DNA of 64,000 nucleotides from an uncultured virus (IMG/VR IMGVR_UViG_3300022555_000044) (IMGVR_UViG_3300022555_000044); one strand, 5' to 3'. Shown: positions 1 to 53,757, counted from the stretch's first letter. Numbers and translations: made by a program. Notes: generated by a model from the letters alone, not told the origin.

Positions 1-129
1 CAGAGTTGGTCGATTGAATTCATTATGGGTCAGACCATGATGATGATTGGTGGTGTTCGGGATGTTCAGATTCATGATACAACTCTCTCAACTCTCAGAC
101 ATCCATCCGATTTTTCAGATCATGATTAA
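1..129 (+). CDS. 3' end of a hypothetical protein (partial)
   Basis: Frame 1 is open from base 1 (QSWSIEFIMGQTMMMIGGVRDVQIHD...SDHD) to TAA at 127-129. Confidence 0.5.
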   Translation, partial: QSWSIEFIMGQTMMMIGGVRDVQIHDTTLSTLRHPSDFSDHD

Positions 130-130
130 T

Positions 131-819
131 TTACTCAGGTACTCACTGAAAGTTCGATACTCTAACCGAATAGTTAATCGGCAGGAGTTTATCTGAGTTC
201 TCAATTTTGCCATAACTCGTATAGGTGTATTCACGTATCCACCGAAGGCAAAAGAAGCGCGGGAACATGGTTACTTGCAGAAAGTAAATCATCTATCTTC
301 TTAATTGAAGATGCGGTAACAAAGGAAACTTAGTTACAATGGGTCCTGACACTATAGCAAATTACAACACCCGAAATACTGATCTAGTCAGAGGCCAATT
401 ACGAGAATCCATGTGAAGAAGTTACTATAGTTTAACTTGAGGGTAAGTTAAATTGTAGTAATGGATTATTCTGTAATCTTCATATTTTCTATTCTGGTGG
501 AGCAGATGGAGCCTGACCGATAAGGACATCGAAAGAAAGGCGTCGAAGTCTGATATAACCGTGTTAAATTCCCTACTTTGCATAGGGATACAAGGAACTA
601 GTCTGGGCTTGAAACGATATACAGCTCAGCTTCAAAGATTCCCCAAGTAAGTACAAGGTGCAACCTTGACACAATGGTTATACCCCATCAGAGTAGATCT
701 TTTTCAGACTGACACGTATTAGAGGGAACCTATTTTCATCAGAAAATACCGGAGCTCTAATGAACGGTCTTACTTCTCGGGGTGGTTTTGGTCAAACCAT
801 AACCCCGAGATATTTTTTT
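131..819 (+). ncRNA. Candidate large structured non-coding RNA
   Basis: No ORF of 60 aa or more. Many helices, several with G-U pairs on the + strand (133-141/190-198, 205-211/247-253, 421-438/445-462, 547-553/704-710, 554-560/676-682, 603-609/623-629, 718-724/755-761, 731-737/742-748). Ends in a terminator. Confidence 0.7.
775..819 (+). terminator. Intrinsic terminator
   Basis: TCTCGGGGT (775-783) pairs with ACCCCGAGA (802-810), followed by TATTTTTTT. Confidence 0.8.
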
Positions 820-3522: not shown

Positions 3523-4178
3523 AGTATATTCCTGTGTTTATTTACGTATTTGGCCCAATCTTGTGATGTCATCTGTTCCCGTGTTGAACAATGAACACAT
3601 GTTATAATAGCATTACCATAGTTATCAAAATGATTTAATTTAAACAAATGTTCATGATTTCTTTCAGAACTTCTTAAAAAAGGAAATTGTTGAACTTCAT
3701 TCTGAATATTTTTTAATATAGTTCTCTTATCTCCAATTTGTTTCTCTACTTCATCTTTTGTTTTGATTGTAGAGTTCAACATCTTAGATGATTCATTTGT
3801 TGACATCGGTTCATTGATAGATAATTTAGATAAACTAATTCTTTCTAATCTTTCTTTTCTTCTTTGTTCAGCTAATGCAGCATTTTCTCTTTTAGCTTGT
3901 TCAATCTTTTCAGCTGTCCATTTAAGGGGTCTGCCTTGTGGTCTCTTTGGTTCTTCTACTGATTTAGTTAGATCAGGGGGTATTACAGATTTTGATTCTG
4001 GTTTAACTCTTTCTAATTTTTTAACAGTTCCTATTGATTCTTTTTTTTCATTGCTTGATAGATTAGGATTAGTAACTGAAGAAGATTCACTTCCAAAAAA
4101 GATTCTATTTAATTCTGCCTCAGTAAGATCCTTATCAACTTGTGTTATCTCAGTATTATTTTTCTCATCGGTATCCAT
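3519..4178 (-). CDS. Hypothetical protein, possibly DNA-binding
   Basis: Likely start MDTDEK at 4178 after AAAGGA; RPQGRPLKW AT-hook-like segment and C-terminal H-x-H...CVHC. Confidence 0.55.
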   Translation of the reverse strand: MDTDEKNNTEITQVDKDLTEAELNRIFFGSESSSVTNPNLSSNEKKESIGTVKKLERVKPESKSVIPPDLTKSVEEPKRPQGRPLKWTAEKIEQAKRENAALAEQRRKERLERISLSKLSINEPMSTNESSKMLNSTIKTKDEVEKQIGDKRTILKNIQNEVQQFPFLRSSERNHEHLFKLNHFDNYGNAIITCVHCSTREQMTSQDWAKYVNKHRNIL

Positions 4179-4212
4179 TTTAAAATTCCTTTTATAAACT
4201 TGATATAAATAG

Positions 4213-4253
4213 AAAAAGGCACCTTGAGTAAATTTGTGTTTACTCAAGGTGCC
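4213..4253 (-). terminator. Intrinsic terminator
   Basis: GGCACCTTGAGTAAA / TTTACTCAAGGTGCC perfect stem with A5 on the left (U-tail on minus strand). Confidence 0.8.
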
Positions 4254-4274
4254 CGAAGAAGAGTCTAATCAATA

Positions 4275-5171
4275 TTAATGATTAGCTGTGAAAACGATCT
4301 GACCAAGAACTGCTCTGGTGATTGTAGTTGTTGCAGCTACAATATCAGCTTTATAATTGGTTAGTTTTGCGGGTTTACTTGGATATAGACCAGTCCATAC
4401 GTTATTAGGATCAATACCAGCATTTACAATATCAGAATATACAAGAGCAGATGCATTAGCTGCGATTCTCATAGCATCGATCTTATCAAGATAATATTGT
4501 GCTGTTTGATCTGTAAGTACAGGATCACCTGGGAATGACAGATAATTTTCACCTGTCATTGCTGCGCCGCCTGTTCTGCCGGGCATATCATTAATTGTCC
4601 CATTTTGTAGAATTAGATCAGCTGCCAGTGCAGTAATTGTGGGTCCAACCAAACCATCATTAGCTGAACTTGATGATGCATTGTTATTGTATGGGAATGA
4701 TTCGAATGGATCAATCGGGTTATTTGCGTAATCAAGTGTTCTGAATCCTGTTACATCAGCGAATGTACCAACACTTGTATATACAATACCATCATCTGTC
4801 TCGGCTACAGGAAGAAGAGGTCTTGGTGCTGGTGCAACATATTGATAAGCAGTTCCTGTTCCGCCAGGAGCTGTTACATACGTTGGTTGAGTCTGCCATG
4901 TCTGATCAAGTTCAATGAATCCACGATGTGCCATTCTTAATTTTTGATTCTTACTCAAACGGATGATATCATTACCAGCGAGAGCGTTATCAGCAGGAAT
5001 TACAACGCCAATTGCAGGAACTTCAATTACATCGGTCGGACCAATGAATTCTTGTCTTTTAACTGCAGCAGCAGTATTCAATTCATCTTGGGTAGGAACT
5101 GCCATGATCACTTGTTCCATACCGTTCATTTGATCAATATTTTGTGGAAACGGATAATCTGTAGTACTCAT
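4275..5171 (-). CDS. Hypothetical protein, possibly virion-associated
   Basis: 298 aa, A/T/G/P-rich; own RBS AGGAG, upstream motif at 5222-5231 and downstream terminator. Confidence 0.6.
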   Translation of the reverse strand: MSTTDYPFPQNIDQMNGMEQVIMAVPTQDELNTAAAVKRQEFIGPTDVIEVPAIGVVIPADNALAGNDIIRLSKNQKLRMAHRGFIELDQTWQTQPTYVTAPGGTGTAYQYVAPAPRPLLPVAETDDGIVYTSVGTFADVTGFRTLDYANNPIDPFESFPYNNNASSSSANDGLVGPTITALAADLILQNGTINDMPGRTGGAAMTGENYLSFPGDPVLTDQTAQYYLDKIDAMRIAANASALVYSDIVNAGIDPNNVWTGLYPSKPAKLTNYKADIVAATTTITRAVLGQIVFTANH

Positions 5172-5260
5172 TTTATTTCTCCTTGTATAATCTTTGAAAT
5201 CATTTCTTCTCAGAAATTTTTTAATTTGTTCAGTATATTTTTGATATTAAGAGGCAGGAA

Positions 5261-6310
5261 TTAAAGATATGAAATAAGAACTAATTCGTTTATTAAAGCC
5301 GAAAAATCATGTAGCATCGCATCTTTATTTTCTTTCCAATTTTTTTCTGAAATTCTAAAAACTTTGTAACCCGGAATAGATTTTAAAACAAATTCTCTGT
5401 CAATATCTTTTTGAGTATATGTTTTATAATCATCTATAAAATGTTGCCGTTCATCAAATTCAATAAACAGTTTTAGTTCTGATATATGACCATCAGGAAA
5501 GAAACCAACGATATGACCAATAGATGGGTCATTTCTGTTAATTTTATAAGGTGTGTGATGTTGTAGTTCATTTAAACATATTCGTTCCATATTTCCAATT
5601 CTTGGACACAGCGGTTCATCATTTAATTTTTGATTTTCAATCAGTTTTAAAAAATTAATTCTAGAACATTTTCTTCCTTGTGACGATTTAGACCAATTAT
5701 CAACACCATATCGTTCCATATTTGTTTGTCTTGATTTTTCTTTAACTTTTTCTAATTTACTTTGATTATCGACACCGAATTTTTCTAAATTTGTTTGTTT
5801 AATTTTTTCTTGAATTTCTTTTGATTTAAATGGATTATCAACACCAAGATTTTTTAGATGTATTCGTTTAATTTTTTCTTTAATTTCTTCGCATTTTAAA
5901 TTAGTTGTTTCACCAAATTTTTCTAAACATGTTAACATTTTTATTTTTTGAACTTCTTTTGATTGTAGAGGATGTTTAGTATTATAGTGTTTTATAGATG
6001 TTTGTATTTTCTTTTCTTTGATTTGTTGTGACCGACTTGCATTTTCAACACCAAATTTATCTTTGCATGTTTGAATATATTTTTCTTTAACTGATGATAA
6101 ATTGTTTGAACATTTCAATGAACAGCACACAGAATAACCATTACTCATTCTGCCAAAATTAGTATGTTTTCCACAATAACATACTCCTTCGTTTTCTTTC
6201 TTTAAATATTGATCGTAATAGTCTTTACTTTTTATTTTATGAAAATGAGAAACATGACTAGATAAACTGATATAACCATTACATTCTCTGCCACAAATTT
6301 CACATTTCAT
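5261..6310 (-). CDS. Free-standing putative homing endonuclease (C2H2 Zn finger, helical repeats, Vsr/DUF559-like nuclease)
   Basis: CEICG...HVSHFH; repeated (K/N)(F/Y)GVDN...EKIKQT units; FPDGHISELKLFIEFDE. Confidence 0.75.
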   Translation of the reverse strand: MKCEICGRECNGYISLSSHVSHFHKIKSKDYYDQYLKKENEGVCYCGKHTNFGRMSNGYSVCCSLKCSNNLSSVKEKYIQTCKDKFGVENASRSQQIKEKKIQTSIKHYNTKHPLQSKEVQKIKMLTCLEKFGETTNLKCEEIKEKIKRIHLKNLGVDNPFKSKEIQEKIKQTNLEKFGVDNQSKLEKVKEKSRQTNMERYGVDNWSKSSQGRKCSRINFLKLIENQKLNDEPLCPRIGNMERICLNELQHHTPYKINRNDPSIGHIVGFFPDGHISELKLFIEFDERQHFIDDYKTYTQKDIDREFVLKSIPGYKVFRISEKNWKENKDAMLHDFSALINELVLISYL

Positions 6311-7559: not shown

Positions 7560-7718
7560 TTACTCCATCAAGATTTTAGTGTTCTCTGAGAGCCCGAATT
7601 TTCTTTTGATTTTTGAATTAATAGGTTTCTCTACTTCACAAACCCCACTAGGACAATTTGGACATTGGTTTTTCTTCTCTTTTTTTTCTTCTTCAATCTT
7701 ACTTTTCTTATTATTCAT
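7560..7718 (-). CDS. Small Cys-containing hypothetical protein (52 aa, absent from ORF track)
   Basis: MNNKKSKIEEEKKEKKNQCPNCPSGVCEVEKPINSKIKRKFGLSENTKILME; RBS GAGGAG; ATGA overlap with the upstream stop. Confidence 0.6.
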   Translation of the reverse strand: MNNKKSKIEEEKKEKKNQCPNCPSGVCEVEKPINSKIKRKFGLSENTKILME

Positions 7719-8782
7719 TTTAACTCCTCTATTAACGTTTGAAATTGCTGTATGATTTTTTCTTTATTTGAAGTCCAATCCTTTTCTGATACCCGAAAAA
7801 CAATATATCCCAATGATGCTAGTTGTAAAGTACAATCAATATCATTCTGAGTATGATATTTGTTAGTGTGCCAGTGTTCATCAAACTGAATGAAAAGCTT
7901 TAATTCAGGAATATGGCCGTCGGGAAATCGACCAATCATATATCTAAAAGAAATATCATTTCGAATGATATTATAAACAGTATACTGTTGAAGATCATTT
8001 AAAAAGAGTCGTTCATCATCACCAACTCGTGGTGATAGGGGTTCACCATATAGTGTTTGATTTTCAATCATTCTTATAAAATTGATTCTAGATAATTCTT
8101 TTCCTTGCGGTGTTTTTGAAAAATTATCAACACCATAATGATCCATGCATGTTTGTTTGGATCTTTCTTTGATTTCATTCGATTGTAATGGGTATTCGAC
8201 ACCATAGTTTAAAACAAGAGAATTTTGTTGTTTCTTTCTTAATAATTCATTTTGAAGTGGGTTTTCACATCCATATTTAGTTTGACATGTTTGTTTATAT
8301 TGATTTCTGAACCCGATAACCTGTAACGCGCATGTTGTTCCATATTTTTCTTTAAATGAATTTTTTATTTTTTGTTTTGTTTTATCTAAACTTGATAAAT
8401 TCTTAACTCCAAAATTTTCTAAATTCATCTGATCTAATATTTTTCTGGCTTCTGAATGTAACATGCTTTTGACACCATGATTTTTAAAGCATGTTTCTTC
8501 TTTTTTCTTTTTAATAAATTCGCATTGACTAATATTATCAACACCATATTGTTCTTTAATTGCTATTTGCGATAATTTAAAAGAATGTTTGTTACATGTT
8601 TTTCTATAACCTTTTTGTAATGATATAAATGTTGTTGATTTAGAACAAAAAAGACAAGTATCTTCATTTTCAGTTTTTATAAATTTATCGTAATAATCTT
8701 TTGTTTTCCAACCATGTTTTAAAAATATATGGTGTCTAGATTGATCAAAGGAAAATTCTTGACTACAAAGTTTACATTTCAT
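7715..8782 (-). CDS. Free-standing putative homing endonuclease (C2H2, repeats, Vsr/DUF559-like)
   Basis: CKLC...HHIFLKH; YGVDN repeats; FPDGHIPELKLFIQFDE. Confidence 0.75.
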   Translation of the reverse strand: MKCKLCSQEFSFDQSRHHIFLKHGWKTKDYYDKFIKTENEDTCLFCSKSTTFISLQKGYRKTCNKHSFKLSQIAIKEQYGVDNISQCEFIKKKKEETCFKNHGVKSMLHSEARKILDQMNLENFGVKNLSSLDKTKQKIKNSFKEKYGTTCALQVIGFRNQYKQTCQTKYGCENPLQNELLRKKQQNSLVLNYGVEYPLQSNEIKERSKQTCMDHYGVDNFSKTPQGKELSRINFIRMIENQTLYGEPLSPRVGDDERLFLNDLQQYTVYNIIRNDISFRYMIGRFPDGHIPELKLFIQFDEHWHTNKYHTQNDIDCTLQLASLGYIVFRVSEKDWTSNKEKIIQQFQTLIEELK

Positions 8783-28229: not shown

Positions 28230-29966
28230 ATGAACATGCAATGTATGATATGTAACAAAGATTTTGAGATTGGTCGTTTACAAATACATCTATCTAAGAT
28301 TCATAAAATTGATCTTGAAGAGTATTATATCAAATATATCGATCCAGATGTATCTAAAATATGTTCGATGTGCGGAAATCCAAAAAAATTTATTGGATTT
28401 AAAAGTGGATATAGTATAACATGTGGTAATAAAACATGTAGATCAAAGTATATCAATATAAATTATAAAGAAAATCAAAGAGCTGGGTGTATAAAAAGAA
28501 ATAAAAAATGGAAAGAAGAAATTATAGATGGAAAAACAAGACAACAAATAATCATACAATCTGGCTCAGAATTAAGAAAAAATAAACAAGAAGAAACATC
28601 TATTAAAATTTCTAATGCTTTAAAAGAAAAAGATTCTAATGGTTACACTTGTATCGCTCGAAGTTTTATGGAAAAATATGGAAAAGAAATAACTAATCCA
28701 ATGCACATTCCTGAAAACGTTTTAAAAATAAGAAAAACATTTCAAGAACGTTATGGTGTAAATTGGATTACACAATCAGAAAAAGTTAAAGAAACAATTA
28801 AAAATTCTACATTTGATAAATATGGAGTTTTTAATTACGCTCAGAGTCAAGAAGCAAAAGATAATATGGCTATTCGTTATAAAGATAATATGATTACAAA
28901 AATTTTAAAATATTTTGAATCATCTAATTTATCTATAATAAGTGATTTACAAGAAGTTTATCAGAATGAAAAAACACAATTAAAATATAAATGTAACATA
29001 TGTAATACAGAATATGAAAAATGCTGGAATGATATTCAATCATGGTGGTCGTGTAGAAGATGTAATCCATATTCAAATTCTAGTTATGAAAGTGAATTAG
29101 AATCATATCTTTTGCAATACAATATTGCTTTTCTTAAAAGACAAAGTATTATAAAAAATCCTATTAGTGGTAGAATGTTAGAAGTTGATTTTTATTTTCC
29201 TAATTTAAATATAGCTATAGAATTTGATGGACTATATTGGCATTGTAATGAAAATCAATTGAATGATGATTATCATTTAATGAAAACAGAACTTTGTGAA
29301 AAACAAGGAATTAAACTTATACATATTTTTGAAGATGAATGGATATTAAAAAAGAATATTGTTCTTTCTAGAATTTCTAATCTATTACATTTACCAAATT
29401 TGAAAAAAATATATGCTAGAAAATGTGTAGTAAAAGTTATAGATTTTTCAATTAAGAAAAAATTTCTAATAGAAAATCACATTCAAGGTAATGATGTATC
29501 ATGTATTAATCTTGGTTTATTTTATGAAGAAAAACTAGTATCTGTAATGACTTTTTCAAAAGGAAGTATAGCTAAGGGACATATTCAAAAAGATGAATGT
29601 TATGAATTATCTAGATTTTCTAATTTGTGTTTTTATAATATTCCTGGCGCAGCATCTAAACTATTATCATATTTTAAGAAAAATTATCTATGGAAAGAAA
29701 TATTTTCATATGCAGATAGACGCTGGAGTAATGGTGGAGTATATTATAAATTAGGATTTGATCTTGATTCTGTCGTTAGACCTAATCATTGGTATATGAA
29801 TAAATTGAATATGTTGAAAAGAATTCATAGATTTGTATTTAGAAAATCAATACTGATGAAAATAGATGGTTATAATGATCAATTAAATGATCAAGATAAT
29901 ATAAAAAATATGGGATATTGTTGGATTTATGATTGTGGAAATTATAAATTTCTTATGATCAAATAA
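28230..29966 (+). CDS. Hef-like putative homing endonuclease (Zn fingers, repeats, nuclease, C-terminal SYADRRW domain)
   Basis: LEVDFYFPNLNIAIEFDGLYWH, LIHIFEDEW, KIYARKC, YELSRF, SYADRRWSNG, IYDCG. Confidence 0.75.
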   Translation: MNMQCMICNKDFEIGRLQIHLSKIHKIDLEEYYIKYIDPDVSKICSMCGNPKKFIGFKSGYSITCGNKTCRSKYININYKENQRAGCIKRNKKWKEEIIDGKTRQQIIIQSGSELRKNKQEETSIKISNALKEKDSNGYTCIARSFMEKYGKEITNPMHIPENVLKIRKTFQERYGVNWITQSEKVKETIKNSTFDKYGVFNYAQSQEAKDNMAIRYKDNMITKILKYFESSNLSIISDLQEVYQNEKTQLKYKCNICNTEYEKCWNDIQSWWSCRRCNPYSNSSYESELESYLLQYNIAFLKRQSIIKNPISGRMLEVDFYFPNLNIAIEFDGLYWHCNENQLNDDYHLMKTELCEKQGIKLIHIFEDEWILKKNIVLSRISNLLHLPNLKKIYARKCVVKVIDFSIKKKFLIENHIQGNDVSCINLGLFYEEKLVSVMTFSKGSIAKGHIQKDECYELSRFSNLCFYNIPGAASKLLSYFKKNYLWKEIFSYADRRWSNGGVYYKLGFDLDSVVRPNHWYMNKLNMLKRIHRFVFRKSILMKIDGYNDQLNDQDNIKNMGYCWIYDCGNYKFLMIK

Positions 29967-52866: not shown

Positions 52867-52946
52867 CTGGATAACTCCTTTTATTATATTCAGTTATTAC
52901 AAATACCACAACATTATAAGATATATAATATTCGATTGATGAGAAA

Positions 52947-52986
52947 GGGATCAATCCTTACTCCCATAGAAATAAGGATTGATCCC
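52947..52986 (-). terminator. Hairpin, probable terminator
   Basis: GGGATCAATCCTTA / TAAGGATTGATCCC 14-bp stem downstream of 53008..53247. Confidence 0.7.
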
Positions 52987-53007
52987 AATACGAATCGTTT
53001 GAATTAA

Positions 53008-53247
53008 TTACACTGCAGGTGTAACTGCAGCAGTCTCGTCCTTAGCATCACGATGCTTTGTGCGAGCACTATCATTAGCGACTGAGACTTTCCGGAAATC
53101 TTGAAAATCCTTACGAAGCTCCATCGAAAGCTTACGGGCGCGAAGTGCTGCTGACTTATTCTCAGCACCAGCAACGGCGTCCATTTCAAACGAACCGAAC
53201 TTGCTCTTCAGCTTTTCAATGAACTCATAATAAGTTGTATCAGCCAT
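53008..53247 (-). CDS. Histone H1-like Hc1-family DNA-binding protein
   Basis: NKSAALRARKLSMELRKDFQDFRKVS matches the NKxAxxRARKxSxEL pattern; RBS AAGGGAG. Confidence 0.7.
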   Translation of the reverse strand: MADTTYYEFIEKLKSKFGSFEMDAVAGAENKSAALRARKLSMELRKDFQDFRKVSVANDSARTKHRDAKDETAAVTPAV

Positions 53248-53508
53248 GATAACTCTCCCTTAGTTGTTTGTATTTGAGATTCTATTCTTCCGCTTTAACT
53301 TAATTTATTCTTCACTTTAAAAAGCGTATCTTTTGTTTAAAACATCATAACACAGTTTAAAATTTATGGTTTGTTCCTACTAAAGATTTTTGTTTCTTTT
53401 TGATATGTAATTTATAAATCATGAATATATTCAAATGATGTACTCATATAAATAGATTGTTAAAAAATACATCTAGAATAAAAAATATACCTGCAAAATT
53501 TCGATTTT

Positions 53509-53609
53509 GGGGGGGAGGGGGGCTCTGATGAACCTTGAGTTAAGGTTCTTGGGCTCGCAATCGAGATGAAGAGGATGAACCGCTTTGGTTCTTGGGCTCG
53601 CAACTCGAG
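53509..53609. repeat. G7AG6 tract plus two imperfect direct repeats of a double-hairpin motif (candidate origin)
   Basis: GATGAACC-N-GGTTCTTGGGCTCGCAA(C)TCGAG at 53527-53565 and 53574-53609, in the divergent intergenic region. Confidence 0.65.
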
Positions 53610-53757
53610 TATAAAGGAAAGAAAAAAATATATCAAAAAACTAATACACGACCAGTACTTATTTATTATTAGGGAAAAAAATCTTCTATTTTCAACTGAA
53701 TAGTTTTTCTTATGGATACAACATTTTGAATTAAGGAATAAAAATTAAAAGGAAGTA

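Follow-up and report, generated by a model that had tools for sequence, protein, structure and literature searches.

A probable folded non-coding RNA region of modular build beside the tRNA-Leu(UAA) gene of an uncultured freshwater T4-type phage

ROOL RNAs, which are encoded by phages and prophages and often lie near transfer RNA (tRNA) genes, average 581 nucleotides (nt) in length and adopt a complex conserved fold with multistem junctions and pseudoknots, and have no known function (PMC5737381). GOLLD RNAs, derived from lakes or phages, likewise often occur near tRNA genes, and a recent preprint describes their 3′ region as universally conserved and their 5′ region as less so (bioRxiv 10.1101/2024.12.08.627333). 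Phage T4 offers a third precedent, its tRNA region giving rise to the non-coding RNAs RNAC and RNAD, whose role is given as unknown (PMC3014915). Here we describe positions 131-819 of a 64,000-nt stretch of DNA, hereafter the window, from an uncultured virus (IMGVR_UViG_3300022555_000044). The source is an uncultured freshwater T4-type phage: the proteins encoded in the window include a Gp23-type major capsid protein and a Gp20-type portal protein, alongside a family B DNA polymerase, a DnaB-type helicase and several homing endonucleases. Positions 131-819 are very probably a real, conserved and folded non-coding RNA region beside a tRNA gene, and we class this region as a new family among the phage tRNA-adjacent structured RNAs, with unusual modular behaviour. 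A first-pass annotation of the sequence had proposed a single structured phage RNA of ~690 nt; its conserved, folded, non-coding, + strand and terminated character held up in our analysis, and a single global architecture did not.

Relatives were gathered by one metagenome scan with the downstream gene, which encodes a DUF5661 protein, and the resulting 80 loci were then compared by blastn and nhmmer. Across the 34 viral and 80 metagenome loci of this neighbour search, the region was present only in three, namely L042, L043 and L044. L042 is identical to the window, whose position 1 corresponds to L042 position 5138. L043 matches the window at 62 of 68 positions over a small 5′ module (positions 133-198), at 449 of 491 over positions 199-697 and at 107 of 120 over positions 698-819, and L044 matches it at 53 of 65 positions over the module and at 229 of 298 over positions 199-500. 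No relatives of the region were found in Rfam, 50,697 phage records, IMG/VR contigs or GTDB genomes. More specifically, blastn of positions 1-1000 and of the module against the phage records returned nothing significant; blastn of the core that follows the module returned 7 records (E value 0.3) lying inside coding genes of Aeromonas phages, which we take as chance; exact and degenerate patterns run against IMG/VR viral contigs gave 0, 0, 0 and then 5 matches, which on inspection were chance; and a pattern for the core (core A) had 0 matches in genome contigs. Nor did we meet a prior description of the RNA in the literature, in searching that was not aimed at one and cannot exclude one.

How, then, does this region compare with the described systems? 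It resembles ROOL in being a large RNA in a phage (here with T4-type genes) with an adjoining tRNA gene. It differs from ROOL in that the ROOL covariance model is unmatched by positions 131-819 even at E ≤ 10, and in that its supported helices are serial local hairpins in a domain order that varies, as judged from three sequences that give little power over long-range pairing. Like GOLLD, it is large, of lake or phage origin and close to a tRNA gene, and it combines a conserved with a variable portion; yet the GOLLD model is unmatched in the window, L042, L043 and L044, and the conservation is reversed, since it is the core toward the 5′ end that all three relatives have in common and the sequence 3′ of it (496-775) that gives way to another in L044. 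Of the two options raised at first pass, a member of the ROOL/GOLLD class or a new class, membership fails with the covariance models; the region belongs to no Rfam family and adjoins a tRNA gene, a setting that ROOL and GOLLD often have. RNAC and RNAD of T4, small RNAs of about 120-140 nt, are the closest analogy by setting and phage type. The group I introns of tRNA-Leu(UAA) genes and of T4-type phages are also structured, enriched in G+C (GC), free of open reading frames (ORFs) and found in regions rich in homing endonucleases; unlike them, positions 131-819 lie outside any gene, following a stop codon and ending at a terminator, after which come a separate promoter-like box and gene. In keeping with the first-pass observation that no group I intron signature was visible, no such model matched positions 1-1000 at E ≤ 10, although the same library did find an intron at L044 (see below), and we rejected this identity.

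The region does not code for protein. All six frames of positions 1-900 contain 15-24 stops each, with TAA, TAG and TGA all present in every frame, which rules out a gene with a recoded stop. No + strand ORF of at least 30 amino acids (aa) begins within positions 131-819, and ORFs present in L043 are not preserved in the window. The region had been called the longest ORF-free stretch of the window, which is correct at a cut-off of at least 60 aa (positions 1-863); at a cut-off of at least 80 aa, positions 52867-53757 (891 nt) form a slightly longer one. This other stretch has a GC content of 0.34 and is flanked by the divergently oriented polymerase gene on one side and a block of + strand genes on the other. 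The reported enrichment in GC was confirmed, at 0.39 for positions 131-819 against 0.31 for the window and 0.25-0.30 for its other gaps (60-aa cut-off), and the GC-rich block as a whole spans approximately L042 4800-5960, that is, the tRNA gene, the small gene ORF93 and the RNA region.

At gathering thresholds, Rfam 15 had 0 matches anywhere in the window, and a search of positions 1-1000 at E ≤ 10 gave three chance-level matches only, to small nucleolar RNA and small RNA models. As had been noted from the sequence, there is no sign of a tRNA or a transfer-messenger RNA (tmRNA) in it: ARAGORN called 0 genes in the window, and no model of the Rfam tRNA clan matched positions 1-1000 at E ≤ 10. 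The comparison of folding energy with shuffled controls gave a + strand minimum free energy (MFE) of -195.2 kcal/mol for the region, with a z-score (z) of -5.06 (20 shuffles), set against a background mean of -0.24 and standard deviation of 1.35 (53 windows of 300 nt across positions 1-36,700). Locally, the strongest values belong to a long hairpin at 404-490 (-4.87), the terminator (-3.76), the module (-2.78) and a hairpin of domain C (-2.59).

Conservation of the region exceeds that of silent sites nearby. From position 199 to 697, 42 of 491 sites differ from L043 (8.6%), as compared to 32 of 91 (35%) four-fold sites; from 199 to 500, 69 of 298 sites differ from L044 (23%), as compared to 27 of 81 (33%). 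These four-fold sites were drawn from three flanking genes (ORF93, the DUF5661 gene and the next gene), and 26-49% of the third codon positions of the flanking genes differ from L043. Compensatory change was evaluated by taking the MFE structure of the window alone (207 pairs) and checking the same pairs in the relatives. Among the 201 pairs aligned in L043, 173 had the same letters and 10 were broken; pairing survived a one-sided change at 10 and a two-sided change at 8. Of the 93 pairs aligned in L044, 64 had the same letters and 10 were broken, with pairing surviving a one-sided change at 11 and a two-sided change at 8. When the 3′ partner was slid by 1-3 columns as a control, 0-2 double changes were seen. 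In a three-way alignment of the core, double changes with pairing kept occurred at 11 of 83 window-derived pairs, compared to 3.9 ± 1.6 in shuffles, 0 of 500 of which reached 11, and 0-2 in slid structures. The proportion of paired cells, 94.6%, is an inflated figure, given that the structure was derived from one of the three sequences.

The module (positions 133-198, + strand) is a 66-nt three-way junction, with a consensus fold of 22 pairs, 5 of which show two-sided changes. It consists of an outer helix of 8 base pairs (bp; 133-140/191-198) and an inner stem, and its junction bears two small hairpins, one with a GUUCGAU loop and a second formed by CCGA/UCGG; 2 of 200 shuffles folded as well. 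The helix 133-141/190-198, predicted at first sight, is real and covaries. The junction and loops are near-invariant, and the sequence of the outer helix differs by context yet stays paired; in addition, the pair closing the GUUCGAU loop changes from A-U to G-C in L044. We take this loop to be like the T-loop consensus. A tRNA or tRNA-like element was considered and set aside, ARAGORN and the Rfam model being negative and the resemblance being one of the loop only, and a hammerhead or other self-cleaving ribozyme was discarded with no Rfam match and core motifs that misfit by eye. A covariance model built on the module (R1) found one copy each in the window, L042, L043 and L044, and no further copy in the window or in the other 97 of 100 loci. 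Separately, a 151-nt contig of sequencing run X7, at a depth of ~2, carries the core of the module (148-185) with 3 differences, in flanks that are unrelated to those of the window, L043 and L044 and whose inner ends are complementary to each other. This single low-depth contig hints at the module being a free-standing motif in other genomes.

Core A (positions 199-495, + strand) is common to all three relatives, being identical to the window at 253 of 289 positions in L043 and at 226 of 293 in L044. It is made up of six serial hairpins, at 205-253, 267-292, 294-313, 316-337, 342-396 and 404-490, of which that at 316-337 has a 15-nt expansion in L044 and basal pairs that covary. A run of 26 nt at 395-420 is nearly invariant in all three relatives. 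By contrast, a long-range helix of the consensus fold, 258-264/493-499, has 4 of its 6 pairs broken in L044. A candidate internal terminator at the U-rich positions 486-495 was dropped, since the MFE structure pairs this tract with 685-697.

The last of the six hairpins, at 404-490 on the + strand, is a composite (MFE -27.2 kcal/mol, 0 of 200 shuffles as good) in which a 9-bp base, 411-419/477-485, carries a 19-bp stem, with a side hairpin at 463-472. The 18-bp stem that first drew attention to this site is real, extending to 19 bp in the MFE structure (421-439/444-462) around a GAGG loop (440-443), and its apparent mismatches in the window are indeed all + strand G-U pairs (three in the 18 pairs of the register). 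In the relatives there are additional G-U pairs, only two of the 36 cells are true mismatches, and covariation is seen at 422/461 and 425/458. Two crossing pairings had been proposed here as a pseudoknot or switch. One of them, the base 411-419/477-485, is upheld, as pair 417/479, AU in the window, is GC in L043 and L044 alike; the other, 398-411/462-477, has 8 of 14 standard pairs in register and an extra break in L044. With one helix failing, the pseudoknot or switch is unsupported.

Domain B (positions 496-697, + strand) is branched, is closed in the MFE structure by 488-500/685-697 and is common to L043 only, to which it is identical at 196 of 202 positions, too little variation to test its fold. 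A single change at position 688 in L043 turns a G-U of the closing helix into G-C; L044 has no alignable counterpart, with an unrelated sequence of ~170 nt instead. Two long-range closures had been suggested in this part. That at 554-560/676-682 is present in the MFE structure (554-562/674-682) and is invariant, and that at 547-553/704-710, although complementary, is outside the MFE structure and loses one pair in L043. Domain C (positions 698-774, + strand), also common to L043 only, is a long imperfect hairpin at approximately 706-771, which 1 of 200 shuffles matched in stability and which is identical to L043 at 62 of 75 positions; its pairs 713/767 and 732/747 show two-sided change with pairing kept. 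The region ends, as had been read from the sequence, in an intrinsic terminator (positions 775-819, + strand), a two-tier hairpin at 775-810 (-19.7 kcal/mol) followed by UAUUUUUUU with its U7. This terminator is identical to that of L043 at 45 of 45 positions; a simple terminator scan did not flag 775-810, probably because of the two-tier stem.

Set side by side, the three loci differ in how these parts are assembled. The order in the window is module, core A, domain B, hairpin C and terminator, and only the module (133-198) and core A (199-495) are common to all three relatives. In L043, there is no module after ORF93; it lies instead between the equivalents of positions 697 and 698. In L044, positions 496-775 are absent, and a 556-nt ORF-free insert (L044 4760-5315) separates ORF93 from the module. 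This insert folds well, with z of -5.85 on the + strand and -3.28 on the - strand (-5.45 for 4760-5331), is flanked by a direct repeat of ~14 nt beginning ATCACGATT, and has no Rfam match and no similarity to the other sequences examined. It is followed, 3′ of the module, by ~70 extra nt, then by core A, and then by the ~170 nt unrelated to domains B and C, which end in a T-run, making a total of ~1,240 nt without an ORF of at least 40 aa. Contigs of a further run, X10, repeat the L043-type and L044-type junctions; the X10 and X7 runs are perhaps not independent of the samples behind L043 and L044. Thus, the region looks like a patchwork of independent hairpin modules and not a single giant ornate RNA: with the module relocated in L043, 496-775 replaced in L044 and the supported helices all local, a single ~690-nt architecture is not supported.

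As for the strand, the + strand is favoured because the tRNA gene and all flanking genes lie on it, because the U-run 3′ of the terminator stem is found on this strand only, and because the G-U pairs of the long stem would become A-C on the - strand.

A tRNA-Leu(UAA) gene, identified by both ARAGORN and Rfam, lies at L042 4875-4965 on the + strand, ~170-260 nt before window position 1; being located outside the window, it had been missed at first pass. It is directly followed by ORF93, a 93-aa gene of 282 nt (L042 4985-5266, + strand; its 3′ end at window positions 1-129), whose ATG is preceded by an AAGGAG box. ORF93 is a real orphan gene: its six protein variants are 64-81% identical to the window copy, no family was found for it in Pfam or PHROG, and its Atlas rows were all below the bar. 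A profile of ORF93 run against viral and genome contigs gave 20 and 135 pattern matches, respectively, and 0 confirmed loci. Its predicted model is a small helical bundle, with a predicted local distance difference test score (pLDDT) of 77 and no PDB match at E ≤ 0.001. The gene and the RNA region co-occur at all three loci, and reading of the sequences upstream of the tRNA-Leu gene revealed an AT-rich box that is likewise conserved at all three.

Downstream of the terminator, a promoter-like box, GAATAAATTA, stands at positions 840-849 on the + strand, before the DUF5661 gene (864-1193). The box has 9 copies in the window (840, 1228, 6839, 9627, 15562, 38700, 49693, 53301 and 61220), one of them GAATAAATAA, as compared to 2.64 expected, and 0 of 100 shuffles reached 9. 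The copies at 840, 1228 and 61220 lie ~24 nt before start codons, and several copies precede start codons on their own strand by a few tens of bases. GAATAAATTA is likely a phage promoter box, presumably resembling the T4 late-promoter type. There is no copy before position 131, and on the simplest reading the box at 840 starts a separate transcription unit after the terminator.

We consider it probable that positions 131-819 are a functional, structured RNA region of the + strand. What this RNA might do is less certain, and we give about even chances to a scheme in which the region is transcribed together with tRNA-Leu and yields at least one stable RNA of modular build, whose conserved loops and junctions would engage a putative partner. 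The tRNA-Leu(UAA) gene, ORF93, a structured RNA tail and the intrinsic terminator would form, in this order, a small transcription unit, whose tail would be built of autonomous modules (the 66-nt module, the ~300-nt core A and the lineage-specific B and C). Host tRNA-processing enzymes would excise the tRNA from the precursor, and the leftover structured RNA, whole or further cut, might persist as stable RNA(s). The conserved loops and junctions would then bind a putative phage or host partner, the RNA serving as a scaffold or decoy, a role that would parallel the uncharacterised stable RNAs arising from the tRNA regions of other phages.

Several observations weigh against this scheme, or against a structured + strand RNA altogether. 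The sequences show the region to be non-coding and conserved, with locally compensated helices, rearranged modules, a terminator and a neighbouring tRNA gene; that it is transcribed, shares a transcript with the tRNA, is processed and acts in trans on a partner is what we infer, and no RNA run is listed among the 10 runs that contain the stretch. The power to detect covariation is low, with only three distinct relatives, and a strict scan, which required runs of 4 or more pairs that are standard in every one of the three sequences and include at least 2 covarying pairs, returned 1 helix where the null mean is 0.44. The - strand folds nearly as well as the + strand (z -4.81, 20 shuffles), and individual domains give modest values (-2.25 for core A and -1.2 for domain B, 535-697). 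Paired and unpaired sites are substituted at equal rates (38 of 408 versus 23 of 271 in L043, and 49 of 209 versus 32 of 154 in L044), and one-sided transitions at pairs that were Watson-Crick only yielded 14 G-U and 10 A-C, which is neutral on strand. Lastly, the identity to L043 of positions 496-697 (97%) and of the terminator (100%) may reflect recent exchange as readily as constraint.

A bolder version of the co-transcribed, modular RNA, which we hold to be unlikely, would make the module and core A together (133-495) an undescribed family of trans-acting phage RNAs tied to phage tRNA biology, with the module as a mobile, self-contained RNA domain that moves both within an RNA and from one RNA to another. 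Such a domain would keep its core and re-evolve its closing helix, and would perhaps serve as a handle for the machinery that processes or binds tRNAs.

Alternatively, the region could be a cis-acting 3′ untranslated region of the ORF93 messenger, protecting it from 3′ exonucleases or tuning ORF93 expression with no role in trans. That it begins one base past the ORF93 stop codon and finishes at the terminator, that it accompanies ORF93 at all three loci, that no promoter-like box precedes position 131 and that serial local hairpins are the expected look of such a tail all fit this explanation. We nonetheless find it unlikely: exonuclease blocking alone needs neither unpaired sites that are as conserved as paired ones nor a near-invariant 395-420, a densely packed phage would hardly be expected to give a 282-nt gene so long a tail (690 nt here and 1,240 nt in L044), and the X7 contig has the module in an unrelated context.

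The proposal of a single large ornate RNA, a new class of the ROOL/GOLLD kind that is globally folded, possibly multimeric and trans-acting, draws on the length of ~690 nt, the phage genome and the nearby tRNA gene, on the whole-region z of -5.06 and on the long-range helices of the MFE structure (488-500/685-697 and 554-562/674-682). Moreover, GOLLD itself is described as part conserved and part variable (bioRxiv 10.1101/2024.12.08.627333). On the other side, ROOL and GOLLD covariance models find no match even at E ≤ 10, the order of domains is not fixed (the module being moved in L043 and B and C replaced in L044), all compensated helices are local, 258-264/493-499 breaks in L044 and the pseudoknot is unsupported, which together make a single ornate RNA quite improbable.

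Could the region instead be functionless debris, left by mobile elements, a gene or a tRNA gene in a recombination hot spot? The tRNA neighbourhood is indeed a hot spot for mobile elements: L043 and L044 have different homing-endonuclease genes upstream, the tRNA-Leu of L044 is split by a group I intron, inserts are bounded by short direct repeats, and close relatives differ in architecture. Debris, however, would not be expected to diverge less than four-fold sites, to show an excess of compensatory pair changes or to have a raised GC content, as structured RNAs do, and no cloverleaf remnant, tRNA signal or residual frame is seen, leaving this explanation very improbable. An element acting as DNA through its inverted repeats (a replication origin or a packaging or recombination site) is improbable in the extreme, for while both strands fold about equally and the G-U versus A-C test is neutral, the region is GC-enriched and not AT-rich, has no iterons or tandem repeats, has a long stem whose mismatches, in each of the three relatives, read as G-U on a single strand, and ends in a directional terminator. 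Two further candidates were rejected: a type III toxin-antitoxin RNA, there being no tandem repeats, and the guide RNA of a nearby nuclease or reverse transcriptase, there being no such gene among the neighbours scanned.

Several features of the wider surroundings were recorded along the way. At L044 ~4060-4470, the tRNA-Leu(UAA) gene is interrupted in its anticodon loop by an intron of ~300 nt, which scored 37.7 bits against the Rfam group I model (E 3.5e-8) in a local search of 461 nt, short of the gathering score of 50; the split tRNA was missed by ARAGORN and by the gathering-threshold scan, and the tRNA-Leu(UAA) genes of L042 and L043 are intron-less. The homing-endonuclease genes upstream of tRNA-Leu also differ, being of the NUMOD3/DUF559 type in L043 (3904-4644) and of the HNH type in L044 (3423-4001), and the window carries three endonuclease genes of the DUF7487 type (5261-6310, 7715-8782 and 28230-29966). 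In the background fold scan, the strongest signal was that of positions 4201-4500 (z -5.48), which take in the 3′ end of a - strand gene of 298 aa, real and GC-rich, plus the short gap following it. The product of this gene is 56% identical in L044, and within positions 4151-5250 the first 133 nt are 86.5% identical to L044, as compared to ~70% for the remainder.

The stretch itself was found in 10 DNA runs from 4 studies, labelled as freshwater or lake metagenomes, two of which may be the source. Judged by its capsid, the closest viral contig is G001 (70% identity), from which the region, ORF93, both neighbours that were tested and the module are absent. Its first 20 kb (L127, G001:C1:1-20000) contain 12 tRNA genes, including Leu(UAA), plus a tmRNA (150 bits), and around these tRNA genes there are several ORF-free stretches of a few hundred nt each, none of them similar to positions 131-819.

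ROOL, GOLLD and the T4 RNAs RNAC and RNAD are a standing puzzle, as none has a known function, and this locus adds to them an unrelated example from a T4-type freshwater phage. Interchangeable parts, including a module that changes its position and its closing helix and keeps its core, do not figure in the descriptions of the known classes. Should expression be confirmed, the module and the 300-nt core would be tractable objects for finding binding partners, for which the protein of the always-adjacent ORF93 is an obvious candidate.

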